In this document: piece after piece, positions 1,201-39,859 of the stretch
How the letters are laid out: each line of letters starts with the position of its first letter
How positions within the stretch are numbered: position 1 is the stretch's first letter
Assembly: GCA_039028615.1 (NCBI GenBank)
Contig: JBCCHT010000032.1
Span: 1-64,000, forward strand
DNA length: 64,000 bases
From: Myxococcota bacterium
GTDB taxonomy: Bacteria > Myxococcota_A > Polyangia > Nannocystales > Nannocystaceae
Direction of reading: 5' to 3'
Program-made: the position numbers and the translations under genes
The notes under the pieces: model-generated
The model's database searches: none
What the model was told of the DNA's origin: nothing
The model's input: only the letters and a program-made list of their open reading frames with translations

Positions 1201-1206
1201 TGCCAG

Positions 1207-1569
1207 GTGACCAAGAACATCTACGACCCCGCCTGGCCCGGCTTCTACGTCAACGTGCAGGTCGGCGAGGCCCTGGTGACCAACCCCGATCCCGGGGCGA
1301 CGCCCGACGAGGTCCTCGTGCAGATCTTACCGCCCGACCAGACGGTGGAGATGCAGTACATTCGCCGTTCGAGCTTGGTCGAGCCGGGGGCGACGGTGAT
1401 GACCCGCGAGCAGCTCGAGCTATTGGTGCAGCAGCTCGCCACGATCCACGAGCACTTCGCTCCGCTCTACGAACGACAGCGTGACCCCAGCTTCGCGATG
1501 GACGTCGAGTTCAAGATCGACGCCGACGGAAACCTGGCCATCAAACAGGCACGGCCCTGGGTGGATTAA
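1207..1569 (+). pseudogene. C-terminal fragment of a PEP/pyruvate-binding (PPDK_N, ATP-grasp) domain protein, truncated at the junction
   Basis: VTKNIYDPAWPGFYVNVQVGEALVTNP...MDVEFKIDADGNLAIKQARPW has the typical PPDK_N C-terminus (DVEF...QARP) and resembles the end of the 15,959-18,055 protein. The upstream part of the track ORF (1,099-1,206) is AT-rich non-homologous sequence. Confidence 0.8.
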
Positions 1570-1613
1570 CTCGTTCCGACGGTGATGGGCCTTTACCGGC
1601 GGAAAAAGCCCGA

Positions 1614-1629
1614 TGTAAAGGTCTTTACA
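1614..1629. promoter_or_regulatory. Palindrome TGTAAAG-GT-CTTTACA upstream of amtB; candidate CRP/NtcA-type operator
   Basis: Perfect 7-bp arms with a 2-nt spacer, AT-rich in a GC-rich background. It fits GTA-N8-TAC and lies about 110 bp upstream of amtB. Confidence 0.55.
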
Positions 1630-1737
1630 GCTCCACAAGGTCCGCGCTGCGACTCGTATTCGAGGTGCACCGACGCGAGTGCGGCAACGGCGAGGCGAGG
1701 TTGATCCGGCGCATGAGGGCTGCGAATCATCGCGCCC

Positions 1738-3000
1738 ATGGTAGGCGCAGTTTCAGTCGACTCCGGGACCACGGCGTGGATGCTGACATCCACGGCACTC
1801 GTGTTGTTGATGGTTCCCGGGCTGGCGATGTTCTACGGCGGGTTGGTGCGGACGAAGAACGTCCTCGGCACCATGCTCCACAGCTTCGCGGCCATGGCCA
1901 TCATCGGCGTGTTCTGGTCCGTATGCGGGTACGCCATGGCCTTCGGGCCCAACGTGGCCGGAGGCTGGATCGGCTGGAACCCCGACTACCTGTTCCTGGA
2001 GGCGGCCGACACCAAGATCATGGACGAAGGCGTCCCCGAGTACGTGTTCGCGATGTTCCAGGGCAAGTTCGCCATCATCACGCCGGCCATCATCGCGGGT
2101 GCGTTCGCGGAGCGGGTGAAGTTCTTCGGCTACTGCGTGTTCATCTGCCTGTGGGCGGTCTTGGTCTACACGCCGCTATGCCACTGGGTGTGGGCTTCCG
2201 ACGGTTTCTTGTTCAACCTCGGGGCACGCGGGGCGATCGACTTCGCGGGCGGCACGGTGGTGCACATCTCCGCGGGCGTGGCCGGCCTCGTCGCGGCGTT
2301 CTACCTGGGGGCGCGACGCGGCTACCCGGGCACGGTGATGCATCCCAACAACCTGGTCATGACCCTCATCGGCGCGGGCCTTTTGTGGGTGGGTTGGTTC
2401 GGCTTCAATGCGGGCAGCGCCATCGCGTCGGACCTGCAGACGGCTCAGGCGCTGACGGTGACCCAGATCGCGGCCGCGGCCGGAGCCGTGGCCTGGATGC
2501 TCATCGAAGCGGCGCACCACGGTCGGGCGACCAGCCTCGGCGTGGCCTCGGGCATCCTCGCCGGGCTCGTCGTGATCACCCCCGCGGCGGGCGTGGTGCA
2601 GCCCAAGGGGGCGCTGGTGCTCGGAGCCTTGGCCTCCGCGGTCAGCTACGGCGCCATCTTGCTCAAGAACCGACTCCGCTACGACGACACCCTCGACGTG
2701 TTCGGCATCCACGGGATCTCGGGCATCGTGGGGGCGATCGCGCTGACCTTCTTCGTGCGCGACAGCTGGATGGCCGAGGCGGCCGTCGAAGCCGGCGGCT
2801 CGTGGACGATGCTCGAGCAGCTTTGGGTGCAGACGGCCGGCGTCGGCGTGACCGTGGTGTACGCGGGGGTCGTGACCCTGGGAATCTTGGTGCTGGTGGA
2901 GCGCACGCTGGGCTTGCGCCTGGGCGAGAAGGCCGAGATGGCCGGGGTCGACCACAGCGAGCACGGTGAAGACGGCTACGGGATGTTGAACGCCGGCTGA
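1738..3000 (+). CDS. amtB: Ammonium transporter, Amt family
   Basis: Motifs PGLAMFYGGLVR, FQGKFAIIT, DFAGGTVVH, WVGWFGFNAGS and DDTLDVFGIHG; multiple TM helices; adjacent to a P-II gene. Confidence 0.97.
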   Translation: MVGAVSVDSGTTAWMLTSTALVLLMVPGLAMFYGGLVRTKNVLGTMLHSFAAMAIIGVFWSVCGYAMAFGPNVAGGWIGWNPDYLFLEAADTKIMDEGVPEYVFAMFQGKFAIITPAIIAGAFAERVKFFGYCVFICLWAVLVYTPLCHWVWASDGFLFNLGARGAIDFAGGTVVHISAGVAGLVAAFYLGARRGYPGTVMHPNNLVMTLIGAGLLWVGWFGFNAGSAIASDLQTAQALTVTQIAAAAGAVAWMLIEAAHHGRATSLGVASGILAGLVVITPAAGVVQPKGALVLGALASAVSYGAILLKNRLRYDDTLDVFGIHGISGIVGAIALTFFVRDSWMAEAAVEAGGSWTMLEQLWVQTAGVGVTVVYAGVVTLGILVLVERTLGLRLGEKAEMAGVDHSEHGEDGYGMLNAG

Positions 3001-3020
3001 GGCGGAAGGGGTCGCAGACG

Positions 3021-3365
3021 ATGAAGCTTCTCACGGCAATCATTCAACCCGACAAGCTCGAAGAGGTTCGCGAGGCTCTGCTCGCAGCCGAGATTTCACG
3101 CATCACGGTGTGTCGCGTGACGGGCCGAGCCCGCGCCGATGCATCACCGGAGCTGTTTCGTGGACGCGAGGTCGCGCCTGCGCTGCAGGCTCGGGTGCGG
3201 ATCGACATCGCGCTCAACGACGACTTCGTGAAGCCGGCCATCGATGCCATCTTGAGCGCGGCGCGGCACGGCGAGGGGGAGCAGGGCGACGGCAAGATCA
3301 TGATCGTGCCGCTCGAGCAGTGCATTCGCATTCGGACCGGCGAGTCCGGTACGGCCGCGATCTAG
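3021..3365 (+). CDS. glnK: P-II nitrogen regulatory protein
   Basis: MKLLTAIIQPDKLEEVREAL...GDGKIMIVPLEQCIRIRTGESG; lies directly downstream of amtB. Confidence 0.93.
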   Translation: MKLLTAIIQPDKLEEVREALLAAEISRITVCRVTGRARADASPELFRGREVAPALQARVRIDIALNDDFVKPAIDAILSAARHGEGEQGDGKIMIVPLEQCIRIRTGESGTAAI

Positions 3366-3393
3366 CCGACGGTGAGGACGGGCGAGGGCGAGG

Positions 3394-5808
3394 CTATTCG
3401 CCCTTGCCCTCTTTGTTCTTGCGGCGCTCGGCCGCCTCCCGGGCGAGCTCGAGGATGCGCTCGCGGGTGAGCATGGTGGTCTCGTCGCCGGGCCCGGGAG
3501 CATCGAGTTCGATCGGCGGCAAGTCGGGCACGACCCGTCGGGGAGCCGGGATCGGTGGCGCTGCGGCATCGGGAGGCGGCTGGTAGTCGGGCTGCGAGAC
3601 CGCGAAGCGCTGGCGAATGGAGGCGAGGTCTTCGGCTGCGAGCCAGGCGGTGCCTTCGGCTTCGGGATCGGTGGTGGCCAGCGCGGCCATGGCCGCGGCG
3701 CGCTCGAGCAGCTGCGTGGTCTCGGGGCTCACTTCTCGGGCGGGCGGCAGCTCGGCCTCTCCCGCGATGGCCGACACCTCTTCCCGCGTCAGCAGGCTCT
3801 GGCTGGAGCCGTCGAGGAACATGGTGGTTGCCTGGCGGATGGCGTGCTCTTCGTCGGAGCTCCAGCGATGCACCACCGTGGCCGAGCCGGCCGCACCCGC
3901 CGCGCTGGGCCCGATGGCCATGCCCGGCCAGTGCATCGCGGCGATTTCCTCGAAGGAGAGGTCGGCCGTGCCTTCGTCGGGGGCTTGCGCTGCGTCGGTG
4001 GTTTGACCGATGACGATCGTGCGCGACGACGCGGGCGGCGTGGAGCCGCCGAGCGCGACGGTGCCGGTCGACGGCGTGTGAAACGGTGGCAGTGCGTCGG
4101 GCGGGGTCGCGTCGGGGTTCGATGCGGCGATCGGGGGCGGAGGCTCGGCGGCGGGGTTCGGGGCGTACGGCGGTGGCTCGGGCGCTGGCGGTGGAGCGTA
4201 CGGCGGCGCGGCCGGGGTTGGCTCGGGACCAACCGAAGGGCCTGTGGGTTCGGCGGCGGGGGCAGACGGAGGCGCGTCGCCCAACGGCGGTGGTCCATGC
4301 TCCCCGGGTCTGGGTCCGGGCGGGAGCGGCTGCTCTTTGGGCAGTGGTACCGAGACGGCGGGCGACGCTTCGACCTGTTCGGCGGCTGCCCTGGCGGCTT
4401 CGGCTTCTTTGGCCGCTACCTCGATCGCTTCGGCCCGGGCGGCTTGTTCACGCCGCGCTCGTTCGCGCAGGGCCTCGACATCGACGCCTTCGAGGCGCAG
4501 TGCCGCTTCCCAGTACTGCTCGGACTCGCGATGCAGCCGCCGTTGCTTGCACACGATGGCCAACGCGCGGGCACAGTGCCCGCCGCTCCCCAGCGGAGCC
4601 ATCACGGGCTCCGCATCGGCCAGCGTGACGCCGCGAGACCAGAACGCGATCGCCTGGGCATCCATGCCGAGCAGCAATGCGGTGTCTCCCGTGAGTCGGC
4701 AGGCCTCGATGGCGAGCTGGGTTGACCCCGCGTTCTGAGCGCTGAGGGCCGCCTCGGAGTAGGCGAGCATCGCGGCGGGGCGGTTGCCCAAGGCCATGCG
4801 GGTGGACCCCAGCGACAGCTCGGCCAGCGGCAGCAGCTGCGGGTCGTCTTCATGGGTACGCGCCCGCTCCACCGCCCGCAGGTTGGCCAGCTCCGCCTGG
4901 TCACCCGCCTTTGCGCCGAGCAAGTAGCCCCCGAGCAACAGCTCCATCGAGATGCTCTGGGAGGCCCAGCCCGCCTGGGTGCACAGGTCGCGCGCGCGTC
5001 GTTGGAGCTCGACGGCCTTCGGCCCCTGGCCATCGTGTTGGGCTTGGCTGGCGTCGACGAGCAGCTTCGCCAGCTCGCGACGCTTGGCGGCGACCGGATC
5101 GTCGGCAGGTGCAGGGGCGGGCGGCTGCCCAGGGCGTGGCGGCGCGACGATGCCCTCGGGGCGCGCCCCGGGAGCGCCGCTGACCGGCGGCGCGGCAAGC
5201 ATGGATTGCAGCGCGTGGGTCTCGGCGGCCGTATCGGGCTTGCACTCGATCTCGCGAAGCTCCCGTTCGCTCGTCACCACATCGTCGATCGAGGAGCGCT
5301 CGGCATCGACCACGATCCAGCGGGTGGACTCGATCCCCGAGCCGCGCAGCAGCATGGCCAGGCCCCGCGACCACTGCCGCGTCGCCTTGACGTGCGAAGG
5401 ATTGAGGATGACGACCCAGGGGCGCGGGCGGGCGCCGTCGGGCACGGTCGTGGACACCCAGGCCAGCTGCTCGGCGAACCCGGCGATGCCGCGGGTCGGT
5501 GAGGGAGGCGGCAGGCTCGGCCAGGCGGGCTGCCCCGGCTCGACGAGCGAGCATCGATGCTCATAGTCGGCCCGTAGCGCCTCGCTGCGCAGGTCCCAGC
5601 CGGGATCGCCCGTGCCGTGCGGAGCCTCGAGCACGACAAAGGGGCCCGGGGCATGGGGTCCGTGCTCGAGGCTTCGCAGGGTCTCGAGCACGCCACTGCG
5701 CAGGGGGGCGGTGGTCACCACATGTAACAGACGCTGCTCCTGGCTGCGAAGGAACCGAGTCGCTTGGTCGTGCAGCTCGACGAGCGCTTCGGCAGGGCTA
5801 CCGCTCAT
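3394..5808 (-). CDS. VgrG-associated hypothetical protein with helical TPR-like centre and Pro-rich disordered C-terminal half
   Basis: 804-aa ORF with GC-rich codon usage starting 13 nt after the vgrG stop; Ala/Leu helical repeats followed by a PAPEPPP-type region. Confidence 0.75.
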   Translation of the reverse strand: MSGSPAEALVELHDQATRFLRSQEQRLLHVVTTAPLRSGVLETLRSLEHGPHAPGPFVVLEAPHGTGDPGWDLRSEALRADYEHRCSLVEPGQPAWPSLPPPSPTRGIAGFAEQLAWVSTTVPDGARPRPWVVILNPSHVKATRQWSRGLAMLLRGSGIESTRWIVVDAERSSIDDVVTSERELREIECKPDTAAETHALQSMLAAPPVSGAPGARPEGIVAPPRPGQPPAPAPADDPVAAKRRELAKLLVDASQAQHDGQGPKAVELQRRARDLCTQAGWASQSISMELLLGGYLLGAKAGDQAELANLRAVERARTHEDDPQLLPLAELSLGSTRMALGNRPAAMLAYSEAALSAQNAGSTQLAIEACRLTGDTALLLGMDAQAIAFWSRGVTLADAEPVMAPLGSGGHCARALAIVCKQRRLHRESEQYWEAALRLEGVDVEALRERARREQAARAEAIEVAAKEAEAARAAAEQVEASPAVSVPLPKEQPLPPGPRPGEHGPPPLGDAPPSAPAAEPTGPSVGPEPTPAAPPYAPPPAPEPPPYAPNPAAEPPPPIAASNPDATPPDALPPFHTPSTGTVALGGSTPPASSRTIVIGQTTDAAQAPDEGTADLSFEEIAAMHWPGMAIGPSAAGAAGSATVVHRWSSDEEHAIRQATTMFLDGSSQSLLTREEVSAIAGEAELPPAREVSPETTQLLERAAAMAALATTDPEAEGTAWLAAEDLASIRQRFAVSQPDYQPPPDAAAPPIPAPRRVVPDLPPIELDAPGPGDETTMLTRERILELAREAAERRKNKEGKGE

Positions 5809-29406: not shown

Positions 29407-29619
29407 CTGGGGATGATACCTGGCAATGCCCGAGTCGTGGTGAGAGGCCACGCGCCAGCGGGCGGGGAACGTCGCTCCGGGACGGTTGGCGGCGCCCCGC
29501 TGCTCGCGCAAACGAGCCTTCGTCGCTGCGGGTCGAGTGCGAGTCGAAGGCGAGGGCACGATCGGTCGCGGGGGGATCCCCCAGGGTCCGGCGCGGAAAA
29601 GGGTCTATGCTCGGAGCCG

Positions 29620-32600
29620 GTGTGGGAGCAGGCAGGCGCGCCCGCGGTCGGTGAGTTCCCGCCGACGCGGCGGTTCTCGGCGCGGGAGGTGCTCGGGCGC
29701 GGCACCTTCGGCACGGTGTTCGAGGTCGTCGACGCGGACTCCAAGGCGACGGTCGCGGCCAAGCTGCTGCACCACGAGGACCCCCGGGCGCTGGCTCGCT
29801 TCAAGCAGGAGTTTCGGGCGCTGGCCGACCTGCACCACCCAAACCTGGTGCGGCTGCTGGAATTCTACGCGGACGAAGGGCGCTGGTTTTTCACCATGGA
29901 GCGCCTGCGTGGACGCGATCTGCTGTCGTGGCTCGGCACTCGGGCGCCGATTGCCGCCACCCTCGATGCCAGCTCGATCGAGACCAGCGAGCTGTTGGCG
30001 CGGGCTCGTGGCGAGCAGCCGGGCGCGCTGCTCGAGGCGTTCTCGGTGCCGGAGCCCGCCAGCATTCGCTCGTGTTTCGCACAGATCGCCGAGGGGCTGG
30101 CGGCGCTGCACGAGGCCGGGTTGCTGCACCGCGATCTGAAGCCCACCAACATCATCGTCGACGACGAAGGGGCGTTGAAACTGCTCGATTTCGGCCTCGC
30201 CATTTCGTTGCGAGAGCAAGCGGGGGCGGGGGCCAAGCCGGTGGGGACGGTGCCCTACATCGCCCCCGAGCTGTGGCGGCAGGAGCCGGCCCGACCCGCC
30301 GCGGACTGGTTTTCCATGGGGGTCATGCTGCATCAGGTGCTGACCGGGCGCGTTCCACCGCGCAACGACGACGGCACGACGACGCCGGGCTCGATGGAGG
30401 ACCACGGTGATCCCGAGCTGAGCGCCCTGCGCTCGCTGTGTCGAAGCCTGCTCGCCGACGACCCGGAACAGCGCCCGTCCCGGGCGGAGATCCTCGAGTG
30501 TCTCGGGGCCGGCCGAGGGCGGGGCGCGCAGCTGGTTCCGCGCCGATCCGGCCCCTTCGTGGGGCGGGCGACGGAGATGCAGGCCCTGCACCGCGCGCTG
30601 GCCCAAAGCCGCACCGAGGGCTCGCACGTGGCGTTGGTGGTGGGCACCAGCGGCGTGGGCAAGTCCGCGGTCGCGCGGGAGTTCTGTGATGCCGCGGCGG
30701 CCGACCACGGGGCCCTGGTGCTCGCCGGGCGCTGCTTCCAGCAAGAGCGGCTGCCCTTCAAGGCGCTCGATGGCATCGTCGATGCGCTGGCCCATGCGCT
30801 GCTCGACCCGCGGTGGATGGACGCCTCGCTGCACGAGCTGTTGGCCGAGCACGGTCAGCGCCTGGGGCGGGTCTTTCCCGTGTTGCGCATGGTGCCCGCG
30901 GTGGCGGGCGCTCCTTCGCGGTCGCTGCCCGTCGAGGCGCAGGAGATTCGTCGGGCTGCCTTCGAGAGCCTGACCGTGGTGTTGCTCGCGCTGGCGCGCC
31001 GCGGCCCGGTGGTGGTGTTCATCGATGATCTGCAGTGGGGCGACCGCGAGTCGGCCGAGCGCCTCGTCGATCTGCTGACGCGAGCGAGCGGAGCGGGGGT
31101 GTTGGTGGTGGGGACCTGCCGCGCCGAGGAACGCGAGGACGCACCCTTCGTCGTCGCGTGGGCGGAGCTCGCGGCCTCGCTGCGGGGGCGGGCACGCTGG
31201 CATTCGATCGAGCTGCAGCCGCTGGCCCAGGGGCACTGCGAGGCGCTGGCCCGGGCCTTGCTCGCCGAGCACCGGGTCGAAGGCGTCGACGTGGGCACGC
31301 TCGTGCGCGAGTCGGGAGGCAGTCCGTTCTTCGTCGAGGAGCTGGTGCGGCGGGCTCCGACCCATGGCGGAGAGGACTCGAATCCGGCGGTCAGCTTGCG
31401 GCAGGCTCTGCGGGCGCGCATCGACGCGCTGCCGGAGGCCGAGCGGGCATTGCTGGAGCTGGTGGCGGTGGCGGGGCAGCCCATTGCTCGCGAGCCGCTG
31501 CTGCACGCGGCAGGCTCGTCCTCACCCATGTGGCGGGCCCTCGACACGCTTCGGGTCGCTCACCTCGTGCGCACCCGGGAGCGAGGCGAGACCCTCAGCG
31601 TCGAGAGCTACCACGATCGCATTCGCGAGACCTTGCTCGAGCTGCAGAGCGAGTCGGCCCGGGCTCGGGGACACCTGAAGCTCGCGCGATCGATGGCCGC
31701 GCTGGACTTTGCGGATCGAGGCCGCATCGCTCGACACTTGGTGGACGGGGGAGCCCCGGACGAGGCGGTCGAGCACGCTCGTGCGGCGGCGACCGAGGCC
31801 GAGGCGGCGCTGGCCTTCGAGCGGGCGGCTCAGCTGTGGGCGCTGGCCTTGCGGGGGGTTACGCCCGACGACGCACGCTACGATGCCATTCGTCGCCAAC
31901 GGGCCCAGGCGCTGGTGCAGTGCGGGCGTGGAGCCGAGGCGGCGCCGATCTACGAGTCCTTGGCCGAGGGCCGCGACGACCATCGCGACCTGCGGATCGC
32001 GAGCGAGCAATGGCTGGTCTCTGGCCACATCGACCGGGGCACGGCGGCGCTACAGACCGTGCTCGAGCGGCTCGACCTGCGCTGGCCGAGCAGCCCCCGG
32101 GCGGCCTGGACGGGAGTCTTACGGGACCTCCCGGCCATTGCCTTGCGCCGTGCCAAACCCCGCGCCGATGGCTTCGACCCCACCGTGCTCGAGCGGGTCG
32201 ATGCCTGCTGGTCTGCCGTGCGTGGGCTGTCGTCGGTCGATCATGTGCGGGGCTTGTTCTTCGTCGTTCGGGGCATGCGGCTCGCTGTCGCGGCGGGTGA
32301 GCCCACGCGGCTGGCTCGCTTTGGCATGTTCTTCGGCGCACAGCTACGCGCCATGGGGTTGCCGGGCGGGGAGGCGCTGTTCTCCCGCCATCGGGCGTTG
32401 GTGGCGGTCGACGACGTCGAACTCTCCACGTATGTCGACTTCCTCGAGGGCTACGTCCGGCTTCAGCAGGGCGATGGCATCGGGGCGGCGGCGGTGCTCG
32501 AGCGAGCCCTCGAACGCTTCGCCGACGAGTGCAGCGGCGTGGCCTGGGAGGTCTCGATCTGCCTCAACATGCTGTGCGAGACGGTCAGCGAGGGCGGAGA

Positions 32601-33378
32601 CATGAATGCGCTGGCCGAGCTCGCGGGACGAGCCCGGCGGCGGGCCGAGTCTCTGGGCGACATCGGCGGGCTGCAGGGGGCCTACACGTTCTTGGCGGCC
32701 TGCGCGATGGCCCAGGACCAACCCGGGAAGGCGCGGCGCTACTACGATGACCTGCTGGGCATGTGGACCGTCGAGGGCTTTCACTACCCGCACTTCATGG
32801 TCGGGGTGGGGCGCAGTCTCTGCGACCTCTACGAAGGCGAGCCGCGGGCGGCGTGGGATCGCATGGAGTCGCTGCTCGGCCCGCTCGATGCCTCGGGCCT
32901 CGGTCGGTCGCCACACATGCGCGCCAAGGCTCTGGCTCGGCGGGCGCAGTGCTGCTTGGCGTTGCTCGGTGCCGACGAGTCCACCCGCGCCGGGGTCGGC
33001 GAGCGAGCGCTGCTGCGGCTCGTTCGTCGTTGTGTCGGCGACTCCAAGCGCCTGCGACGAGCGGATGTGGCGGCCGAGGTGGCGCAGATCGAGGCCGCGC
33101 TGGCGTGGCACGGCGGCGACGTCGATGCGGCGGCGGCGGGCTTGCAGCTGGCCCGGGAGCGCTTCGAGGCGCTGGGTAGCCACGGGCGTGCCCGGCTGTG
33201 CGAGCTTCGCCATCGCCAGATCACGAGTGCATCGACCTCCGCCATCGACGAGGCCCGAGCCGAGATCGCGGCGCTGGGCATCGAGCAGCCGCTGCGATGG
33301 GCCCAGGCCTACGCGCCCGGGTTCTCCGGGAATCGCATGTCGCGGAACATCGCCAGCAAGTCGGCCTCGCTGAGGTAG
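29620..33378 (+). CDS. Ser/Thr kinase fused to AAA/STAND-type ATPase and helical repeats (start uncertain)
   Basis: LGRGTFGTV, HRDLKPTNI, DFGLA, GTVPYIAPE, FVGR, Walker A GTSGVGKS, VFIDDLQWGD and SGGSPFFVEEL. Confidence 0.95.
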   Translation: MWEQAGAPAVGEFPPTRRFSAREVLGRGTFGTVFEVVDADSKATVAAKLLHHEDPRALARFKQEFRALADLHHPNLVRLLEFYADEGRWFFTMERLRGRDLLSWLGTRAPIAATLDASSIETSELLARARGEQPGALLEAFSVPEPASIRSCFAQIAEGLAALHEAGLLHRDLKPTNIIVDDEGALKLLDFGLAISLREQAGAGAKPVGTVPYIAPELWRQEPARPAADWFSMGVMLHQVLTGRVPPRNDDGTTTPGSMEDHGDPELSALRSLCRSLLADDPEQRPSRAEILECLGAGRGRGAQLVPRRSGPFVGRATEMQALHRALAQSRTEGSHVALVVGTSGVGKSAVAREFCDAAAADHGALVLAGRCFQQERLPFKALDGIVDALAHALLDPRWMDASLHELLAEHGQRLGRVFPVLRMVPAVAGAPSRSLPVEAQEIRRAAFESLTVVLLALARRGPVVVFIDDLQWGDRESAERLVDLLTRASGAGVLVVGTCRAEEREDAPFVVAWAELAASLRGRARWHSIELQPLAQGHCEALARALLAEHRVEGVDVGTLVRESGGSPFFVEELVRRAPTHGGEDSNPAVSLRQALRARIDALPEAERALLELVAVAGQPIAREPLLHAAGSSSPMWRALDTLRVAHLVRTRERGETLSVESYHDRIRETLLELQSESARARGHLKLARSMAALDFADRGRIARHLVDGGAPDEAVEHARAAATEAEAALAFERAAQLWALALRGVTPDDARYDAIRRQRAQALVQCGRGAEAAPIYESLAEGRDDHRDLRIASEQWLVSGHIDRGTAALQTVLERLDLRWPSSPRAAWTGVLRDLPAIALRRAKPRADGFDPTVLERVDACWSAVRGLSSVDHVRGLFFVVRGMRLAVAAGEPTRLARFGMFFGAQLRAMGLPGGEALFSRHRALVAVDDVELSTYVDFLEGYVRLQQGDGIGAAAVLERALERFADECSGVAWEVSICLNMLCETVSEGGDMNALAELAGRARRRAESLGDIGGLQGAYTFLAACAMAQDQPGKARRYYDDLLGMWTVEGFHYPHFMVGVGRSLCDLYEGEPRAAWDRMESLLGPLDASGLGRSPHMRAKALARRAQCCLALLGADESTRAGVGERALLRLVRRCVGDSKRLRRADVAAEVAQIEAALAWHGGDVDAAAAGLQLARERFEALGSHGRARLCELRHRQITSASTSAIDEARAEIAALGIEQPLRWAQAYAPGFSGNRMSRNIASKSASLR

Positions 33379-33947
33379 CGCGTACCGCTGTCGTCGCGAC
33401 GCGCGAAGCACCACCACAGCGGAATGAACTCCCCGTAGGCGCCCAGCGTGGTGAGGCCGTTGCCGTCGTCCTCACGCCGATGGGTCTGCACCATGGTGTG
33501 CAAGTCGGACAGCGCCAAGCCCCGCTCGTTGGGTCCGCCACCCTCGGGGACGAAGGGCCGACCCCACCGCTCGAAGATCCGGTCGAAGTGTTCGCGGCTG
33601 AAGCGGCCCGAGCCCAGCGCTTGCAAGATCTTGGTGTCCGCGCGTGGCTTGTCCAGGGGCCCGCCGGTCAGGCCCGCCGAGTCGAAGCTGAGGGTGAGCA
33701 GGTTCCGTAGGAAGTTGTGCGGGCCGAAGCCGTTGCCCATCAGCCCCACCCCGGCCACCACCGCGCCGAAGAGGCGTGAGCCGCTATGCGCCCGGGCGTG
33801 CTCGTAGAGCTGTCGTACCGAGGCTCGCCCCACCGCCAGCGGCCGCACGCCGGTCTGCGGCTCGTTGTCGGGGTTCGCCGCGCAGCGCAAGAAAGGGCAG
33901 GGGGTGCCCGGGAGTTGTTCGGGAGGATCGGTGGACATCGGCCTCAC
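33309..33947 (-). CDS. Small PCP-motif protein resembling heme-thiolate peroxidase/peroxygenase (caleosin-like C-terminal half)
   Basis: N-terminal GTPCPFLRCAAN, late AYGE and C-terminal MFRDMRFP parallel the PCP, AYGE and FFxxERLP pattern of heme-thiolate peroxidases. GTG start overlaps the lipoxygenase TGA (alternative ATG at 33,938). Confidence 0.65.
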   Translation of the reverse strand: MRPMSTDPPEQLPGTPCPFLRCAANPDNEPQTGVRPLAVGRASVRQLYEHARAHSGSRLFGAVVAGVGLMGNGFGPHNFLRNLLTLSFDSAGLTGGPLDKPRADTKILQALGSGRFSREHFDRIFERWGRPFVPEGGGPNERGLALSDLHTMVQTHRREDDGNGLTTLGAYGEFIPLWWCFARRDDSGTRYLSEADLLAMFRDMRFPENPGA

Positions 33948-36259
33948 ACGTTGCTCGCCACCGTGACCAGCGATGGGCGAAGGTACTCGTAGGGGCGATC
34001 GGATCGGGTGGTCCGATTGTCGAGGGTGATCTCTCGTTCGATCCGAGCCAGGTGTCGCCGCAGCTGCGCGACCATGGGCCAGACGTCGGGGTCTTCGAAC
34101 CAGTCGAGGGCGTACTCGCCTAGGCAGTCGCCGCGAAGCTCGGAGAGCACGAACATCACGCCGGCCTGGGTCAGCGTCGTCTCACCGCCGGGCAGGAACG
34201 CACCGAGGTCGAGCTCGCGAACGCGCCGAGGATCGGCATAGATCGCGGCGGGCACGTGCGAGGGGTCGCACTGCAGGTCGAACTGCCCGTAGTTGACCCC
34301 GCTGTGGAACACGCTCGAGCGGAAGATGATGGAGGTGAGTACGTCGGCGAGCACCTCGGTGTCATCGAAGGACTCGGGGAAGCCGGCCACGTGTCCCCCT
34401 TGCGAGTCACACAGCTCGGCCCGCCAGGCCTCGAGCTCGTGGTCGTCCTTCAGCTCCCGTGCCGAGGGGTAGTAGTGCTGCACGTAGGCGGTGACGAACT
34501 CGTGCAGGGCGTCCCAGAGCCGCAGCCCGTCGTCGCGGAAGGGATAGTTGGGCAGGGCCTCGCGGTCGTCGACGCCGCGGCGGGCGAGCTCTTGCGGCAG
34601 GTGCAGGTCCCAGAAGTCCCACTGCCGATAGTGACGGCGCATGATCTCGATCGAGCCGTCTTCGAGGCGCCCGGACAGGAGCTGCTCGGTGAAGCCCTGC
34701 GGGTTGGTGAGCGTCTGGCGGCCCAGGAAGTTGTTCCACAGCACCAGCCGCAGGTGCACGGCGAGCAGGGCGGCGATGGGATGATCGCGATGCAGCTGGC
34801 GGGCGGTGGCCACGGCGAAGGCCTCGAGTACAAAGTGCACCCCCGCCAGATGCGTGGCCATCTCGTGGTGATTGAACTCGGCACACAGGTACAGCGCCTT
34901 GACCCGGGTCCACAGTTCGTCGCCATCGGCCGGGGTCAGGCACTCGAAGGCTTCGGGGTCGCGCCCCAGCTGAATCGCGATGGGCCACAGCCCCGACGCG
35001 CTGCCCTCTCCCCAGCGATAGAACAGCCCGTAGGGCGCAGGTAGATAGCGCTGACGGGCGGTCTCGGGGCCGAGCAGCTGCCCGAAGAAATCGCGGTCGG
35101 GGCTGTTTTGGCAGGGGATGTCCGCCACCATCCCGAAGTCGGTGAGGAACAGGCGCCCTTGCTCGACCGCCTGCGCCAGCGTGGCATTGCCCGCGGCTTC
35201 GTCGTCCATGCCATGCGCACGAAGGGCCGCTTGCAAGTGTCCGTCATTGACGGCGAAGCCCTCGGGCAGGCCGTGGTCGCCGTCGGTCCCCACACGCCGA
35301 AGCATCACCGGGTTCGTGCCCGCCACCGGACGACGTCCGAACTCGGTGTCGTCGAGCGTGGGGTTGGGCCCGGTCGGCAGGGGCAGGTCGCGAATGAGCC
35401 GGCTGAGGAACATCTGCCCGTCGGGCGCGACCGTGTGGTACCGCCGCATGCGAGCCATGAAGTTCACCAGCAGCTCGGCGGGGGCGACGATGCGCTTGAC
35501 GGAATCGGGCAGCCACGGGTCCGCGGCTCGTCCCGGCTCGGGCGGCAGCTCGGGCTCGGGTTCGGGTTCGGGTTCGCGCCCCACCAGCTGACGCGCATGA
35601 TCGCGGGCGTTGCCGACGACCGCCTCGACGGTGCTTCGGACGAAGCCCTGGACGATCGTCGCCAGCTGCTCCGCATCGGGAAGCGACAGGCCGCCGGACT
35701 CCTGCATCGTGGCCTCCACGACCTCGTCTTGGAGCGCGTCCATGGCTCGGCCCAGCGGGGTGGTGGTGCCCTGGTCGAGGACCCACGTGCTCAGCTCGTC
35801 GACCGAACGCAGCAGCAGATCCGTGAGGGTCATCGCCAGCTGCTGCGCGGTGGGAATCTGTACTCGAAGCACACGACGCTCACCCGGTGACGGCATCAGC
35901 TCTCGCAGGGCTTGCCCGACCCACTGCGGCACTTGCTCACGCGCCAGCTTTCGCGACTGCAGCATGAGGCCCAGCCAGTGCGTCCGAGGGACCCGCTCGA
36001 GCAGCTCGTAGATGGCCGGCCCGGCCCCCAGGGTCTTGCGAATCAGCCACTCGCTGGGCGGCTGTTCGGCGGCAGGAAGCCCGGCAAAGGAACCCGCGAG
36101 CACATCGTAGATCGACAGCACTCCGGTGCCGTCGACGTACGGGATGTGCAAGAACGGGAAGGGGGCGAGGTACTCGTGGTCCCAGCGGTAGAGCGAACGC
36201 TGTTGCTCGAGCTCGTCGGCACGGGCCGTGGAAGGGTCGTGTTGGGGCAAGCGAATCAT
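33944..36259 (-). CDS. Lipoxygenase (non-heme iron)
   Basis: DDTEFGRRPVAGTNP, LWPIAIQL, HHEMATHLAGVHFVLEAFAVATARQLHRDHPI, LPNYPFRDDG, HSGVNYGQ, RPYEYLRPS and C-terminal ASNV; GGAG RBS. Confidence 0.95.
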   Translation of the reverse strand: MIRLPQHDPSTARADELEQQRSLYRWDHEYLAPFPFLHIPYVDGTGVLSIYDVLAGSFAGLPAAEQPPSEWLIRKTLGAGPAIYELLERVPRTHWLGLMLQSRKLAREQVPQWVGQALRELMPSPGERRVLRVQIPTAQQLAMTLTDLLLRSVDELSTWVLDQGTTTPLGRAMDALQDEVVEATMQESGGLSLPDAEQLATIVQGFVRSTVEAVVGNARDHARQLVGREPEPEPEPELPPEPGRAADPWLPDSVKRIVAPAELLVNFMARMRRYHTVAPDGQMFLSRLIRDLPLPTGPNPTLDDTEFGRRPVAGTNPVMLRRVGTDGDHGLPEGFAVNDGHLQAALRAHGMDDEAAGNATLAQAVEQGRLFLTDFGMVADIPCQNSPDRDFFGQLLGPETARQRYLPAPYGLFYRWGEGSASGLWPIAIQLGRDPEAFECLTPADGDELWTRVKALYLCAEFNHHEMATHLAGVHFVLEAFAVATARQLHRDHPIAALLAVHLRLVLWNNFLGRQTLTNPQGFTEQLLSGRLEDGSIEIMRRHYRQWDFWDLHLPQELARRGVDDREALPNYPFRDDGLRLWDALHEFVTAYVQHYYPSARELKDDHELEAWRAELCDSQGGHVAGFPESFDDTEVLADVLTSIIFRSSVFHSGVNYGQFDLQCDPSHVPAAIYADPRRVRELDLGAFLPGGETTLTQAGVMFVLSELRGDCLGEYALDWFEDPDVWPMVAQLRRHLARIEREITLDNRTTRSDRPYEYLRPSLVTVASNV

Positions 36260-36329: not shown

Positions 36330-37262
36330 ATGGCCTGGTTGGAGGGACCCGGACCGTCGTCGACCGTCACGCTGGCGGCTCGCTCCGTGGTCGGGCGGGC
36401 GCCCAACTGTTCGGTGCGTCCCGCCGATCGCCGTGTCTCGGGAGAGCACGCCACGATCGCGTGGTCGGGGGAACGCTGGGAGATTCGCGATCTCGGCAGC
36501 CGCAACGGCACCTTCGTCAACGGCCAGCGGATCGAAGTTCGGCGGGCCGTTCCGCTGAGCGTAGGAGACCAACTGGGTTTCGGTGGCGTCGACGAGGTCT
36601 GGCGCCTGGCCGACGCGAGCCCGCCCGTGGCGACCGCGCGGCGCGTGGGGAGCGGAGAGGTCCTCGTCGCCGAAGGACAGCTGCTGGCCTTACCCAGCGC
36701 GGACGAGCCCTGGATCACCGTTTATCAGGACATGCACGGCACCTGGCAGGCCGAGTCCACCGCGGGGTGCCGGGCGGTCGAGGACGGCGAAGTGCTCGAT
36801 GTCGACGGCCAGGCCTGGGCACTGCACTTGCCCACCACCCTCGAGCCCACCGTCGACGTCGACCAGCGGAACCCGGCCTTCGGCGAGCTGGAGCTGAGTT
36901 TCTCCGTCAGCAGCGACGAAGAAGACGTCGAGCTCATCGTCCGTCACGAGGGGCAACCGCTCGAACTCGGAGGGCGAGCCCACCACTTCGTGCTCTTGTT
37001 GCTCGCCCGGGCCCGACTCGAAGATGCCCAACAACCCGGCCTGTCCGAGGCCGAGCACGGCTGGCGCTACGTCGAGGACGTCTGCCAGATGCTGCGGGTG
37101 GACGATCTACGCCTGAACACTGCGATCTATCGCGCCCGCAAGGAGCTGGGTGCCATCGGGGTTCGCGGGGCGCCGCAGCTGGTGGAGCGCCGTCGTTCGT
37201 CGCGAAGCCTGCGGCTGGGCACGGGCGCGGTCACGGTCACCCGCAGCGGCCCGATTCACTGA
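36330..37262 (+). CDS. FHA-domain protein with C-terminal winged-helix-like domain
   Basis: VGR, VSGEHA and DLGSRNGTFVNG; C-terminal LNTAIYRARKEL...VERR. Confidence 0.9.
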   Translation: MAWLEGPGPSSTVTLAARSVVGRAPNCSVRPADRRVSGEHATIAWSGERWEIRDLGSRNGTFVNGQRIEVRRAVPLSVGDQLGFGGVDEVWRLADASPPVATARRVGSGEVLVAEGQLLALPSADEPWITVYQDMHGTWQAESTAGCRAVEDGEVLDVDGQAWALHLPTTLEPTVDVDQRNPAFGELELSFSVSSDEEDVELIVRHEGQPLELGGRAHHFVLLLLARARLEDAQQPGLSEAEHGWRYVEDVCQMLRVDDLRLNTAIYRARKELGAIGVRGAPQLVERRRSSRSLRLGTGAVTVTRSGPIH

Positions 37263-37271
37263 GGTCGGCGT

Positions 37272-38105
37272 CTACGCTTTGTCGAGCCCGAGGTGCTCGA
37301 CGACCTCGGCCAGGTGCTGCGCGTCGCCATCGACGAGCTTCTCCAGCAGCTTGCGGAAGCGGTCGACCCCGGGGCGCGTGGCTGAGTCGTCCGGTCGATA
37401 CAGCGGCAGCGGCTCGTCGACGCCCTTGAGCGTGTAGCGATCGAGAAAGGTCAGGCACAGCTCCCGATTCATCTCGTTCATGCGCTTTTGGATCGCGATG
37501 CGGCGCTCGTCGTCCCGCTCGGCTCGCTCCTTGGCCCGCAGGTCGTTGAAGTTCTCCCCGTAGAACGCGGAGGCGCACATCTCGACGTTGGTGTCGCCGA
37601 TGATCACGCTGGCGTTGGAGATGATCTTGGTGAGGGCCTCGACGCGGGCGGAGACGTTGACGCAGTGCCCGATGAAGGTGTTGACCCCGGCCGCGCCCGC
37701 GCCCGCGCGGACCCGGGAGACCTCGCCCGACTCGACGCCCACGCCGAAGGACACGAAGGGGAGCAGGCCGGTGGAGTCCTCGCGCAGGTCACAGCAGCGC
37801 CGTAGCCCCGCCTCGAGCAGGTAGGCCGACAAGAGCCCGTTGGCGTAGTGCCGGGGGCCGAGGAACACGACGAGCAGCCCGTCGCCCGTGCCGTTGACCG
37901 ACAGCGTGGGCTCCTCGCGCTCGCTCGGCGCCAGCGCGACCATGCAGGCCTCGAGGGTGGCGGCATAAAACAGCGCCAGGAAGTGACAGAACTGGTTGGT
38001 TCCGTCCGGGTCGAGCGCGGCCGCGTTGAGGTTGGGCGTGAAGTTGCGCAGGTCCACGAGGACGCTGGTCGCGGGGACCGGGGGATCGACTCGGGGACGA
38101 CTCAT
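37272..38105 (-). CDS. Stand-alone class III nucleotidyl cyclase
   Basis: VDLRNFT, GDG, GVGVESGEV, IGHCVNVSARVE and LKGV. Confidence 0.85.
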   Translation of the reverse strand: MSRPRVDPPVPATSVLVDLRNFTPNLNAAALDPDGTNQFCHFLALFYAATLEACMVALAPSEREEPTLSVNGTGDGLLVVFLGPRHYANGLLSAYLLEAGLRRCCDLREDSTGLLPFVSFGVGVESGEVSRVRAGAGAAGVNTFIGHCVNVSARVEALTKIISNASVIIGDTNVEMCASAFYGENFNDLRAKERAERDDERRIAIQKRMNEMNRELCLTFLDRYTLKGVDEPLPLYRPDDSATRPGVDRFRKLLEKLVDGDAQHLAEVVEHLGLDKA

Positions 38106-38150: not shown

Positions 38151-39257
38151 TCAGGACACGACCACCACCATGGCCGCCAGCCCCACCGCGACACGCGCAA
38201 ACTCGAGGGGCACCGCCCAGCGTCGTCGTTCGAGCAGTCCCCCGCCAGCGACCACGGAGACCACGAGCCAGGCGACCATGGCCACGCGAAAACCGAGGCT
38301 CCAGTCGTCGCCCACCAACAGCGTCCAGCCGAGCACGGGCGGAATCAGCAGCCCCGAAAGGCCCACGTACCAGCGCAACGACCTCGTGCCCAGGGCCTCG
38401 GGGTGGGTCTCGGGCGAGGAGCTGCGATGGCCGGGCACGAGCCGCGCGAGGTGGGCGGGACCCGCCAGCCACAGGCGCAGGCGGTTTGCACCGTGGGCTC
38501 GTTGCGTGGCCGCGACCAGCTCGCGGAAGATCGCGAAGTTGCCCCACACCGAGTTGAGCGTGTGCAGCGGCTTGGTGAGGCCATAGCTGGGCTCTTCGTG
38601 TTCCTCTTGGAAGGTCCCGAACAGCCGGTCCCACACCACCAGGATGCAGGCGTAGTTGCGGTCGAGATACTTCTCGTTGCGGCCGTGGTGCACCCGGTGA
38701 TGCGACGGCGTGTTGAACACCCACTCGATTGGGCCCAGCTTGGGCACGTAGCGGGTGTGCATCAGGAACTGATACAGGAAGTCGAAGACCACGATGCCGA
38801 TGAACATCTCGATCGGCATGATGAGCGCCAAGGGGATGCGCCAGGGCCAGGAGGTCAGCTTCTGGAACGCGGCCTGGCGCAGCGCGGCGGCGAGGTTGTA
38901 GTCCTCGGCCGCGTGGTGGACCCCGTGGATGGCCCACAGAAAGTGAATCTCGTGGTGGTGACGGTGCAGCCAGTAGCTGGACAGGTCGAACGCGATGATG
39001 CCGATGACCCAGGCCCACCACGCATCGGTGGGCAGCAGGTCCCAGGTGACCAGCTGGGCGACGGCGAGGAAGGGGAGCGCCATCAGGCCCTTGGTGAGAA
39101 AATCGAAGGCCTGGTAGACGACGCCGTGGCCGATGTTCACGACCATCTCGCCCACGCGATAGCCACCGTCCTGCCGTAGTCGGCTCACCGCCAGTTCCGC
39201 GGTGATGAGCGCCACGAAGAAGAGGTAGGCGATCGCGAGCATCTGCAGTTCGGTCAT
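38151..39257 (-). CDS. Sterol desaturase/fatty-acid hydroxylase family (alkylglycerol monooxygenase-like)
   Basis: His boxes YWLHRHHH, HGVHH and PSHHRVHHG; NYACILVVWDRLFGTF. Confidence 0.93.
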   Translation of the reverse strand: MTELQMLAIAYLFFVALITAELAVSRLRQDGGYRVGEMVVNIGHGVVYQAFDFLTKGLMALPFLAVAQLVTWDLLPTDAWWAWVIGIIAFDLSSYWLHRHHHEIHFLWAIHGVHHAAEDYNLAAALRQAAFQKLTSWPWRIPLALIMPIEMFIGIVVFDFLYQFLMHTRYVPKLGPIEWVFNTPSHHRVHHGRNEKYLDRNYACILVVWDRLFGTFQEEHEEPSYGLTKPLHTLNSVWGNFAIFRELVAATQRAHGANRLRLWLAGPAHLARLVPGHRSSSPETHPEALGTRSLRWYVGLSGLLIPPVLGWTLLVGDDWSLGFRVAMVAWLVVSVVAGGGLLERRRWAVPLEFARVAVGLAAMVVVVS

Positions 39258-39859
39258 GAGGAGCCTCCGAGGGCGGGCAAGATGCGGCCCAGTTGCTCGA
39301 CCAGCGCGATGACGGGGTCCGACTGGCCGGGGCGTTCGTAGCTGGCACCGACCGCCAGCCCGTTGAAGATGGAAAACACCAGGCTGGGCAGGACCTCCGC
39401 GAGTGCGGGGGGCACATGGCGGAGATCGACCAGCGCCATGAAGGCGGAGCGGACCTCGTTGTCGAAGCGGGTCATCAGCGCCCGCATGGGTTCACGAAGC
39501 TGGGGGTCGGTACGGGCCGCGACCGCCAGCTCCAGCCACGCCACATAGACGGGGCCCTGCCACTCTGCCCACAGCTGCTGCACGAGCGCGGTCGGCTGCA
39601 GCGGGGACTGGCCCTGCCGCGACGCGACGAAGCGGGCGACTCGCTCGGCGAGGATCGAGTCGAGGGCGGCGAGCAGCAGCGCGTTGCGGTTGGGGAAGTG
39701 GTGCAACATCGTGCCGCGAGAAACCCCCGCGCGTCGGCACACCTCCTGGGTACTGGTGCCCGCATAACCGCACTCGGCCAGCGACTCGATCGTCGCGTCC
39801 ATCAGCTTGGCCCTCGTCTGTTCCGAGCGCGATTGCTTGGGTGTGCTGTCTGCGGACAT
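39254..39859 (-). CDS. TetR-family regulator
   Basis: GYAGTSTQEVCRRAGVSRGTMLHHFP HTH; ATGA overlap with the desaturase. Confidence 0.95.
   Translation of the reverse strand: MSADSTPKQSRSEQTRAKLMDATIESLAECGYAGTSTQEVCRRAGVSRGTMLHHFPNRNALLLAALDSILAERVARFVASRQGQSPLQPTALVQQLWAEWQGPVYVAWLELAVAARTDPQLREPMRALMTRFDNEVRSAFMALVDLRHVPPALAEVLPSLVFSIFNGLAVGASYERPGQSDPVIALVEQLGRILPALGGSS

Follow-up and report, generated by a model that had tools for sequence, protein, structure and literature searches.

A lipoxygenase gene overlapping a bacterial unspecific peroxygenase gene in Nannocystaceae: a candidate oxylipin pathway

RESULTS

A lipoxygenase gene and a peroxygenase gene overlap at a stop-start junction

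The window (the whole 64,000-nucleotide stretch of myxobacterial DNA that was analyzed) carries a lipoxygenase (LOX) gene followed by ORF2, the gene of a bacterial unspecific peroxygenase (BUPO), with a kinase gene and an FHA-domain gene on either side (Table 1). The features that the sequence-only reading had described were all found again on the DNA: an intact LOX, the GTGA overlap, a TGC codon for the Cys of PCPFL, and the motifs GPLDK, AYGE, and FRDMRFP. The 209-amino-acid form of ORF2 is the version on record (P0003), as is the corresponding form for a relative that is 89% identical (P0180). Both starts are possible, because locus L087 carries ATGA exactly where the window has GTGA, and the genes are coupled, as read from the sequence, with either start. 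At loci L003 and L085 the junction is spelled TGATG. Thus, the LOX stop overlapped the BUPO start in all four distinct intact loci that were read on the DNA, which represent three nonindependent lineages within one family. The translational coupling proposed earlier, together with its recurrence in other genomes, is therefore upheld as a prediction from sequence. Since the overlap recurs in three spellings among relatives that are 57 to 68% identical, the adjacency of the two genes goes beyond chance, and since both neighboring genes sit on the opposite strand, the pair forms a unit of its own. A promoter scan was uninformative, giving no sigma-70-like sites and two terminator-like sites, with 1.0 expected. 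No RNA data set was listed with this stretch, and one DNA run, which is labeled as a marine metagenome and may be its source, contains it. Prediction of a LOX-BUPO complex scored 0.00 in two runs whose controls were not folded, which speaks neither for nor against binding.

Table 1. Coordinates of the genes and predicted functional residues in the window
Feature	Position	Strand	Remarks
Ser/Thr kinase and AAA_16 NTPase gene	29413..33378	+	Convergent; PF00069, PF13191; 3' end overlaps BUPO 3' end by 70 nt
BUPO gene (ORF2)	33309..33947	-	212 aa from GTG, or 209 aa from ATG at 33938
Glu170 of AYGE	33429..33431	-	Predicted distal acid-base catalyst
Lys97 of GPLDK	33648..33650	-	Predicted base of distal acid-base pair; corresponds to Lys95 of HydBUPO
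Cys14 (209-aa numbering) of PCP	33897..33899	-	Predicted proximal heme ligand
Coupling junction	33936..33947	-	LOX TGA (33946-33944) within GTGA, 4-nt overlap; alternative ATG 5 nt downstream
LOX gene	33944..36259	-	771 aa, zero internal stops
C-terminal Val771 of LOX	codon 33949-33947	-	Predicted fifth iron ligand
His652 and Asn656 of LOX	34292..34306	-	Predicted iron ligands, from alignment with LOXs
Gly513 of LOX	34721..34723	-	Coffa site, from alignment
His470 and His475 of LOX	34835..34852	-	Predicted iron ligands, aligned with solved LOXs
Subtype-specific helical insertion of LOX	35390..36142	-	About residues 40 to 290; residues 103 to 243 poorly modeled
FHA-domain gene	36330..37262	+	Divergent; PF00498, E 1e-19; 70 nt from LOX start

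ORF2 is a real gene, as judged from its GC content at codon positions 1, 2, and 3 (0.68, 0.52, and 0.89), from six further clusters of relatives at 57 to 69% identity, and from a crude dN/dS of approximately 0.19 to 0.34 against three loci (dN of 0.26 to 0.37; dS of 1.03 to 1.38, which is near saturation).

The flanking genes recur with the pair. Orthologues of the FHA gene, a candidate regulator, stand in the same place at L085, L119, and (cut) L087, and orthologues of the kinase gene, the true start of which is probably near position 29630, were found at 50 to 53% identity at L085, L087, and L119; the best match of these in the genome of the window is this same gene. Because both genes were inherited with the pair, part of the conservation of the pair is plain linkage. 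In genome G001, where a deletion has destroyed the copy, the kinase gene is absent beside the broken copy.

The LOX belongs to a distinct subtype with a predicted complete iron site

The LOX matched Pfam PF00305 (E 6e-48), and its best matches among solved structures were LOXs. Together with this match, the five aligned ligands mark it as a putative iron lipoxygenase in which the terminal Val771 replaces the usual Ile; His was present at both the 470 and 475 positions in all 20 aligned LOXs. The N terminus has no hydrophobic signal (15-residue hydropathy maximum of -0.06), and no PLAT domain was evident. A long N-terminal helical insertion is diagnostic for this subtype. In the structure model it is helical, with a pLDDT below 50 across most of residues 103 to 243, and a comparison of the insertion with the Atlas gave nothing at 0.9 or above and structural TM scores below 0.4. 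A protein of 1,089 amino acids (P0192) was considered as a fusion and rejected, as it is a LOX with an upstream extension only.

A Gly at the Coffa site goes with R-type oxygenation. Opposite Gly513, the coral AOS-LOX protein has a Gly and Cyanothece LOX2 an Ala, and the site was Gly in P0178 and in all 17 rows of the subtype and its sister group, compared with Ala in two outgroup rows. From Gly513 only, the LOX is predicted to oxygenate in the R manner; the Gly/Ala switch at this site has been described previously (PMC13319228).

ORF2 is a BUPO outside clades V and VI

The structure model of ORF2 (pLDDT of 93.2) is confidently that of a short unspecific peroxygenase (UPO), a helical, chloroperoxidase-like fold. 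It resembled five UPO/chloroperoxidase (CPO) chains with Z scores of 13.7 to 10.7 (rmsd of approximately 3 Å over 168 to 177 residues; next best, 5.9), and the best 27 Foldseek matches listed were all UPOs. The earlier suggestion of a heme-thiolate peroxygenase was thus confirmed at the level of the predicted fold, with the Z score of 13.7 belonging to a fungal UPO. The PCP motif was present in 13 of 13 close relatives and aligned with the PCP of solved UPOs. Lys was found at the Lys97 position in 62 of 65 aligned rows and Glu at the Glu170 position in 58 of the 65, the latter aligning with the AYGE of the fungal UPO 9he6. HydBUPO also has GPLDK, and counting along its printed sequence places Lys95 within this motif. 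The Cys/Glu/Lys triad, the same in kind as that of HydBUPO, was kept in all 13 close relatives, and Glu170 and Lys97 would supply the distal acid-base pair of BUPOs (Glu plus His, Lys, or Arg). The N terminus is not signal-like.

ORF2 belongs to the BUPO family, which was published in 2025-26. It matched the listed clade V BUPO of Pseudosporangium ferrugineum at 31% identity (E 3e-14; hhalign, 98.9%), and its branch is 27 to 32% identical to clades V and VI. In a quick, midpoint-rooted tree without identified clade I to IV sequences, the clade V/VI group (61 rows, including those of Bradyrhizobium, Pseudosporangium, and Burkholderiales) had an SH-aLRT of 98 and the ORF2 branch lay outside it. 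Four Nannocystaceae genus names searched for in the 188-protein list of PMC13394420 were absent from it.

The fungal Mg-binding motif EHD/EGD is replaced by PLDKP in ORF2, which had been taken as a hint of different chemistry. That idea fails: GPLDK is the ordinary motif of BUPO clades V and VI, and HydBUPO, which performs normal H2O2-driven peroxygenation, uses the Lys of this motif as the base of its acid-base pair. The Glu lies in AYGE, and no BUPO has the Mg-binding residues (PMC13394420). The reference CO Soret band of BUPOs lies at 441 to 443 nm (PMC13394420).

ORF2 had no match to the fungal UPO/CPO profile PF01328 at E values up to 1 and none to a P450 or catalase profile in Pfam; PF01328 occurs on 15% of the members of the Atlas cluster nearest to ORF2 by features. 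The caleosin echo seen earlier in the second half of the protein was reduced to a subthreshold match to PF05042 (E 0.032; 14.6 bits, with a cutoff of 27) in 1 of 11 family members, and caleosin membership was rejected on this profile. EF-hand proteins matched residues 97 to 204 approximately, with Z scores up to 5.9, and no caleosin chain was among the matches listed. Genome scans gave no match to PF01328 in 73 family genomes and none to PF05042 in 1, with controls equally without matches.

The pairing recurs with this branch of BUPOs

A survey of LOX neighborhoods for the same pairing, as the sequence-only reading had proposed, found the pair again in related genomes, on the DNA. The ORF2 branch occurred in 3 of 401 class genomes, and the LOX subtype was strongly matched in the same three. 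Of the 14 close BUPO sequences, 11 shared the size of their longest contig with a LOX, and reading the DNA confirmed three of these matches in addition to that of the window; the remaining three sequences lay on contigs of 529 to 2,260 bp. Every assessable member of this branch has a LOX. No LOX was found at 79 clade V/VI BUPO loci, and no BUPO was found near 28 of the 30 family LOX loci examined. The neighbors of clade V BUPOs were unrelated and variable, and a scan of 53 of the 91 candidate neighboring ORFs from 25 clade V/VI loci brought up neither a LOX nor a member of a P450, catalase, or heme dioxygenase family (E 1e-8). A phylum sample gave three matches in 401; there, the BUPO of G543 was of the clade V type and stood in 11.5 kb that lacked a LOX, and G331 had a weak match on a protein without PCP. 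In a search for fusions, none of 8,000 candidates of 465 to 2,000 amino acids scored, a weak negative because the known Bradyrhizobium fusions were missed as well; its range excluded 372 to 464 amino acids.

Four members of the LOX subtype (P0164, P0165, P0168, and P0169) form a subclade that is nested among the paired ones and has no matched BUPO, as judged by equal contig size. The LOX therefore probably works without the BUPO in one lineage. Viral contigs held no relative of P0165. The distances of LOX and BUPO correlated (Spearman, 0.49 over 45 nonindependent pairs) and the subclades of both matched, as is expected of linked genes, and we did not count this as evidence of function.

DISCUSSION

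A candidate two-step pathway

Because the genes overlap and the coupled pair recurs in related bacteria, the BUPO likely uses the fatty acid peroxides that the LOX would make, and these would then be the first natural substrate known for this enzyme family. That it consumes them in some way we regard as probable; that it uses them as the oxygen donor, giving hydroxy and epoxy oxylipins, is our main reading, to which we assign a probability of roughly 0.45. By this reading, the LOX, given its intact iron ligands and Coffa Gly, would add O2 to a polyunsaturated fatty acid (PUFA) to form an R-type hydroperoxide. The PUFA may plausibly come from the genome's own Pfa synthase; matches to PfaA and PfaD above the cutoff lie adjacent to each other on contig C14. 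The hydroperoxide would then bind the Cys-ligated heme, where, as predicted from the triad, heterolytic cleavage of the O-O bond by Glu170 and Lys97 would yield compound I and a hydroxy fatty acid. The oxygen of compound I may finally pass to a double bond or the carbinol, either in that fatty acid or in another one, and the products would be epoxy-alcohols, epoxides, or keto acids. Overall, this would be the chemistry of plant caleosin peroxygenases on a chloroperoxidase fold, and reduction plus epoxidation is a known peroxygenase mechanism. Tert-butyl hydroperoxide supports epoxidation by a fungal UPO, and fungal UPOs epoxidize PUFAs. The characterized BUPOs are slow with H2O2, and their authors suggest that BUPOs may prefer organic peroxides (PMC13394420). 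HydBUPO, the nearest characterized enzyme, made less than one turnover on palmitic and 16-hydroxypalmitic acids. The active-site motifs show no specialization, as the triad is the same in BUPOs without a LOX.

An unlikely alternative is that the BUPO needs no second substrate and rearranges the hydroperoxide via an alkoxyl or epoxyallylic intermediate, acting as an allene oxide synthase, epoxyalcohol synthase, or hydroperoxide lyase in the manner of the catalase-related enzymes or of the CYP74s, which are Cys-ligated themselves. The logic of the operon and the Gly-type LOX are as in the coral and cyanobacterial LOX-AOS systems, the catalase-related AOS enzymes likewise arose from a peroxide-splitting scaffold, and the separate position of the ORF2 branch, with its low identity to clades V and VI, would suit such a change of function. 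The thiolate alone does not select the oxygen-donor route, since the heme-thiolate CYP74s split fatty acid hydroperoxides homolytically. However, the intact Glu/Lys pair favors oxygen donation over allene oxide synthesis, as a rearranging enzyme would presumably not need a heterolysis pair that all 13 close relatives keep, and GPLDK is no departure among BUPOs.

It is quite improbable that LOX and BUPO are neighbors by history only, within a four-gene block, and that the BUPO substrate is unrelated to fatty acids. The kinship of all loci, the FHA and kinase genes conserved with the pair, the changing neighbors of clade V BUPOs, and the LOX subclade without a matched BUPO fit this view, but the overlap was kept or re-formed in three spellings, a LOX accompanies every assessable member of the branch, and the flanking genes lie on the other strand.

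About equally improbable, in our view, is a safety valve in which the BUPO works in peroxidase mode and reduces the hydroperoxide with any cellular reductant, the end point being a hydroxy acid or membrane damage. One-electron peroxidase activity is a property of BUPOs, the genome (96.7% complete) gave no match to the catalase profile PF00199, and one LOX subclade seems able to do without the partner; however, most LOXs of the family are without such a partner, which means that there is no general need for a dedicated sink. Least probable is that the BUPO does not consume the hydroperoxide and uses H2O2, as all characterized BUPOs do and as fungal UPOs do when epoxidizing PUFAs, to epoxidize or hydroxylate the fatty acid upstream or downstream of the LOX step. 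The conserved block showed no oxidase gene, whereas a peroxide source is encoded next door.

Relation to known systems

ORF2 shares with BUPO clades V and VI (HydBUPO of Hydrogenophaga sp. A37; Lopez-Tavera et al. 2026, PMC13394420) a length of about 210 amino acids, the PCPFLR, GPLDK, and GE motifs, a chloroperoxidase-like fold, and the lack of an Mg-binding motif and signal peptide; it differs by its separate branch and its LOX, and in clade VI a fusion with a diheme cytochrome c peroxidase is common instead. With the fungal UPOs and CPO (TteUPO 9iz8, HspUPO 7o1r, PabUPO-II 9he6, and CPO 1cpo) it has the fold and PCP in common, and its AYGE and FRDMRFP are identical letter for letter in PabUPO-II. 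However, the identity is only 11 to 19%, the PF01328 match and the EHD/EGD site are missing, and no LOX coupling of the fungal enzymes was found in the literature searched. Fungal UPOs are mostly secreted.

In the coral AOS-8R-LOX and in the catalase-LOX fusions of Acaryochloris and Anabaena, as here, a LOX is linked genetically to a heme enzyme whose ancestors split peroxides, and the coral enzyme shares the Coffa-site Gly. The catalase-related partners take the LOX hydroperoxide; they are fused and have a Tyr heme ligand, whereas the partner here is chloroperoxidase-like with a predicted Cys ligand and is encoded by a separate, coupled gene, as read on the DNA. In the LOX-CYP74 cascade (AOS, HPL, DES, and EAS), a Cys-ligated heme enzyme, as predicted here, also acts downstream of a LOX, but on a P450 fold and starting with homolysis, whereas ORF2 retains the acid-base pair that serves heterolytic cleavage. 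The caleosin peroxygenases of plants and fungi perform the reaction predicted here, reducing a hydroperoxide and epoxidizing a double bond, and weakly resemble the C-terminal half of ORF2. Their heme has a His ligand, and they carry an EF hand that binds Ca as well as a proline-knot anchor, whereas ORF2 has the PCP Cys and the UPO fold.

The pairing was not found in the literature searched. The earlier expectation that the novelty would lie in the LOX coupling rather than in a bacterial UPO proved correct: BUPOs were already published, and the word lipoxygenase is absent from the main text of PMC13394420. The physiological roles of BUPOs are uncertain, and those of fungal UPOs have not been fully clarified after twenty years (PMC13394420). 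Since the operon names a specific organic peroxide and its would-be maker, a two-protein experiment in Escherichia coli could address this question. If confirmed, the pathway would be a self-contained, O2-driven epoxidation cascade without added H2O2 or NAD(P)H, would bring a new enzyme fold into oxylipin biosynthesis, and would indicate uncharacterized oxylipins in myxobacteria. A broader proposal, which we consider unlikely, is that the UPO fold is a fourth independent class of fatty acid hydroperoxide-converting enzymes, beside the CYP74s, catalase-related hemoproteins, and caleosins. In these myxobacteria the flanking kinase and FHA protein would activate the BUPO to rearrange the R-hydroperoxide of a long-chain PUFA, the product being a new oxylipin in the form of an allene oxide, an epoxy-alcohol, or a cleavage product, and lipid hydroperoxides instead of H2O2 would be the natural cosubstrate of part of the UPO superfamily.

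Conservation and specificity of the gene pair

The window DNA confirmed that the LOX stop codon lies within a GTGA at the start of ORF2 and that the codon for the PCP cysteine is where the sequence-only reading had placed it. An ATG at 33938 gives a 209-amino-acid ORF2, the form recorded in databases, and its residue numbering is used here. Both flanking genes (encoding a kinase-NTPase and an FHA protein) are on the plus strand, opposite the LOX and BUPO genes.

Locations of the gene pair and of the Pfa-type cluster in the same genome
Feature	Location	Strand	Remarks
LOX ORF, 771 aa	36259-33944	minus	First of pair
BUPO ORF (ORF2), 212 aa	33947-33309	minus	Directly after LOX
Pfa-type cluster	G000:C14:180576-197790		PfaD match, PfaA match over cutoff, 2882-codon frame behind PfaA

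The LOX-BUPO coupling is conserved and specific. A survey of LOX neighborhoods, which the sequence-only reading had proposed, showed the same coupling in all four distinct intact loci read as DNA, with LOX directly upstream of BUPO in the window, L087, L085, and one locus represented by L003, L086, L084, and L119 (identical proteins, counted once). The junctions read GTGA in the window, ATGA in L087, and TGATG in both L085 and L003; since the last two are 94 to 95% alike, the four loci represent three lineages, and all paired loci are kin. In searches that scored the best few candidates per genome, many of the genomes being incomplete, the BUPO branch of ORF2 was found in 3/73 family genomes and 3/401 class genomes, and LOX residues 1 to 300 had matches in 5/401 class genomes. 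Three of these five (E values of ≤8e-118) were the genomes with the BUPO branch, and the other two matches were short and weak (E of ~5e-4). LOXs of other subtypes were common (31 of the 73 family genomes), and among 30 LOX loci with flanks of about 1.5 kb, a BUPO stood beside the LOX only at the window's locus and in genome G062. Likewise, among the best 80 of 264 BUPO loci in GTDB genomes, 73 of them with at least 1.5 kb on both flanks, a LOX was near the BUPO only in the one close relative.

Using equal size of the largest contig as a proxy for pairing, we matched 11 of 14 close BUPO sequences to a LOX, the remaining 3 being on contigs of 529 to 2260 bp. In the opposite direction, of the 16 close LOX sequences, 11 had a matching BUPO. 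One of the five unmatched LOXs was shortened (492 amino acids), and by the same proxy the unmatched P0164, P0165, P0168, and P0169, from contigs of 16 to 710 kb, formed a subclade nested among the paired LOXs, for which loss of the BUPO is the simplest reading. The G001 copy (L118:8729-9961) was broken by one deletion that cut both genes and joined LOX residue ~382 to BUPO residue ~131, removing the C-terminal half of the LOX and BUPO residues 1 to 130; there is an additional frame break within the LOX. This copy, from a genome that is 72% complete, may have decayed or been misassembled.

Identity of the partner

ORF2 is a BUPO. Pfam and NCBIfam profiles gave it no family name. Its predicted structure (mean pLDDT of 93.2, from a 65-sequence alignment) points to a UPO-type fold, in line with the heme-thiolate peroxygenase that the sequence-only reading had suspected. 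Compared with 48,161 representative chains, the model matched four fungal-type UPOs and a chloroperoxidase best (Z of 10.7 to 13.7 over 168 to 177 residues; next Z, 5.9), and 27 UPO rows ranked first in Foldseek, only one of them with an E value of <0.001. A profile comparison with PabUPO-II aligned PCP, AYGE, and FRDMRFP (E of 0.0028). In the sections of Lopez-Tavera et al. (2026, PMC13394420) drawn on here, BUPOs are defined as having PCP, a Glu paired with a basic residue, and the fold of chloroperoxidase, and as having lost the residues that bind Mg. GPLDK had earlier been taken as a hint of different chemistry, but the printed sequences of HydBUPO, the nearest characterized member, and BU05 contain both GPLDK and GEW (PMC13394420), and by residue count the catalytic Lys95 of HydBUPO is the K of GPLDK, provided that the tag stands in place of the initial Met; thus, the motif is the ordinary BUPO catalytic base. 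ORF2 was 31% identical to a protein of Pseudosporangium ferrugineum (hhalign, 98.9%), a species that the same paper, in the part used, lists under clade V. A profile search returned 270 representatives (E of ≤0.001), and a quick 83-row tree placed the close relatives of ORF2 together on one branch (SH-aLRT of 98), outside the group containing clades V and VI. Cys14, Lys97, and Glu170 were retained in 13/13 close relatives.

P0053 and P0066, from a sister lineage of this branch, keep the Cys, but their catalytic Glu is replaced by Gln and their Lys by Ala or Arg; judged by these residues, they, and not the window's BUPO, are candidates for altered chemistry. Three proteins of 1672 to 1846 amino acids (P0034, P0038, and P0040) have no Pfam match and end, C-terminally, in a BUPO domain resembling clade VI, an architecture absent from those described in the portion of the Results of PMC13394420 consulted; P0034 is apparently rich in membrane-like stretches. 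In L065:5950-8779, the cytochrome c domain of a clade VI BUPO is not fused to it; the two occupy separate, consecutive frames.

The lipoxygenase

From its sequence, the window LOX looks active. It matched PF00305 at 6e-48, and in alignments with solved LOXs, His470, His475, His652, Asn656, and the terminal Val771 fell at the iron-ligand positions. The catalytic domain was modeled well, and residues 103 to 243 form a poorly modeled helical insertion. The Coffa-site residue is Gly513, and the AOS-linked enzyme from coral likewise has Gly there; Gly at this site predicts R-products. The Gly/Ala switch is confirmed in the part consulted of a 2026 review (PMC13319228). The window's LOX subtype differs in this position from the bacterial LOXs studied by 10.1101/2022.06.21.497025, all of which have Ala according to the sections used. 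Neither LOX nor BUPO has a hydrophobic N terminus, so both are probably cytoplasmic.

P0175/P0194 and P0176/P0196, sister LOXs of the window's subtype that are 43% identical to each other, have the same contig sizes (6143; 10534), which suggests a tandem LOX-LOX pair, with Gly at the Coffa site in both. In several family genomes, two or three LOX matches also adjoined one another, at G031:C26, G066:C43, G018:C256, G023:C29, and G002:C22. Other family LOXs (L114:3-1235, L116:3-1214, and L117:2-445 and 2914-4086) adjoin genes that by eye we take to resemble FAD-linked oxidases, and L117 has a presumably P450-like ORF close by.

Proposed reaction and alternatives

LOXs make hydroperoxides, heme-thiolate peroxygenases require a peroxide, and here the gene overlap couples synthesis of the two enzymes. 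The Glu/Lys pair of the BUPO could then promote heterolysis of the LOX hydroperoxide, and its reduction with epoxidation would yield epoxy-alcohols. In the part of PMC10813956 consulted, two routes from hydroperoxide to epoxy-alcohol are known, peroxygenase reduction with epoxidation and homolytic rearrangement, with CYP74s beginning by the latter. Because the retained Glu/Lys pair is heterolysis machinery, we tentatively favor the peroxygenase-type route, with a probability of roughly 45%; the same pair argues against a CYP74-like rearrangement by the BUPO, which we consider unlikely. Published work adds to the plausibility of the favored route: in the sections consulted, tert-butyl hydroperoxide supports epoxidation by a fungal UPO (PMC6853256), fungal UPOs epoxidize PUFAs (PMC11719350), and the BUPO authors suggested organic peroxides as the true co-substrates (PMC13394420).

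Rather less probable is that LOX and BUPO are functionally unlinked. Orthologues of the FHA and kinase genes occupied the same positions in L085, L087, and L119; therefore, what is conserved is a block of four genes (FHA, LOX, BUPO, and kinase), and part of the LOX-BUPO pattern is accounted for by linkage alone. That the kinase and the FHA protein regulate the pair is a guess based on this conserved position. With saturated fatty acids HydBUPO showed very little turnover, which was counted against the favored route. A BUPO serving as a peroxide sink is about as improbable, if not slightly more so; no PF00199 catalase was found in the whole genome. We give the least credence to a BUPO step driven by H2O2.

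BUPOs are already known, as are LOXs tied to hydroperoxide-converting heme enzymes (catalase-related fusions and CYP74s). The LOX-BUPO pairing is real, conserved, and apparently unreported: it was not found in the literature searched, most subscription journals being outside it, so that a prior mention is possible. The word "lipoxygenase" did not occur in the main text of PMC13394420, of its preprint (10.1101/2025.11.07.687166), or of a second BUPO preprint (10.1101/2025.11.27.690923), the 188-protein list of the BUPO paper being covered in part, and "operon," "gene cluster," and "heme-thiolate" were absent from the review PMC13319228. The value of the pairing is that an enzyme family lacking a natural co-substrate gains a named candidate open to testing.

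Genomic background

The genome of the window (12.3 Mb; GC content, ~70%; completeness, 96.7%) has a single LOX and a single BUPO, and a LOX 66% identical to the window's is labeled Nannocystaceae, which makes a myxobacterial host from that family likely. Its adjacent PfaD and PfaA genes, both above cutoffs, are a plausible PUFA source for the LOX, and PfaA-type synthases can also produce other lipids. A second PfaA-like locus is on contig C15, and the genome has 28 P450 and 12 desaturase matches.

At 38151-39859 (minus strand), 1.9 kb upstream of the LOX, are a TetR regulator and a fatty-acid hydroxylase-family gene (PF04116; E of 6e-27), with no orthologue of the hydroxylase seen in related loci. 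A 277-amino-acid ORF at 37272-38105 (minus strand) had no NCBIfam match, and its motifs recall what we take to be a class III nucleotide cyclase. The first 2000 nucleotides of the window (1-2000) have a GC content of 0.52, compared with ~0.70 across the remainder.
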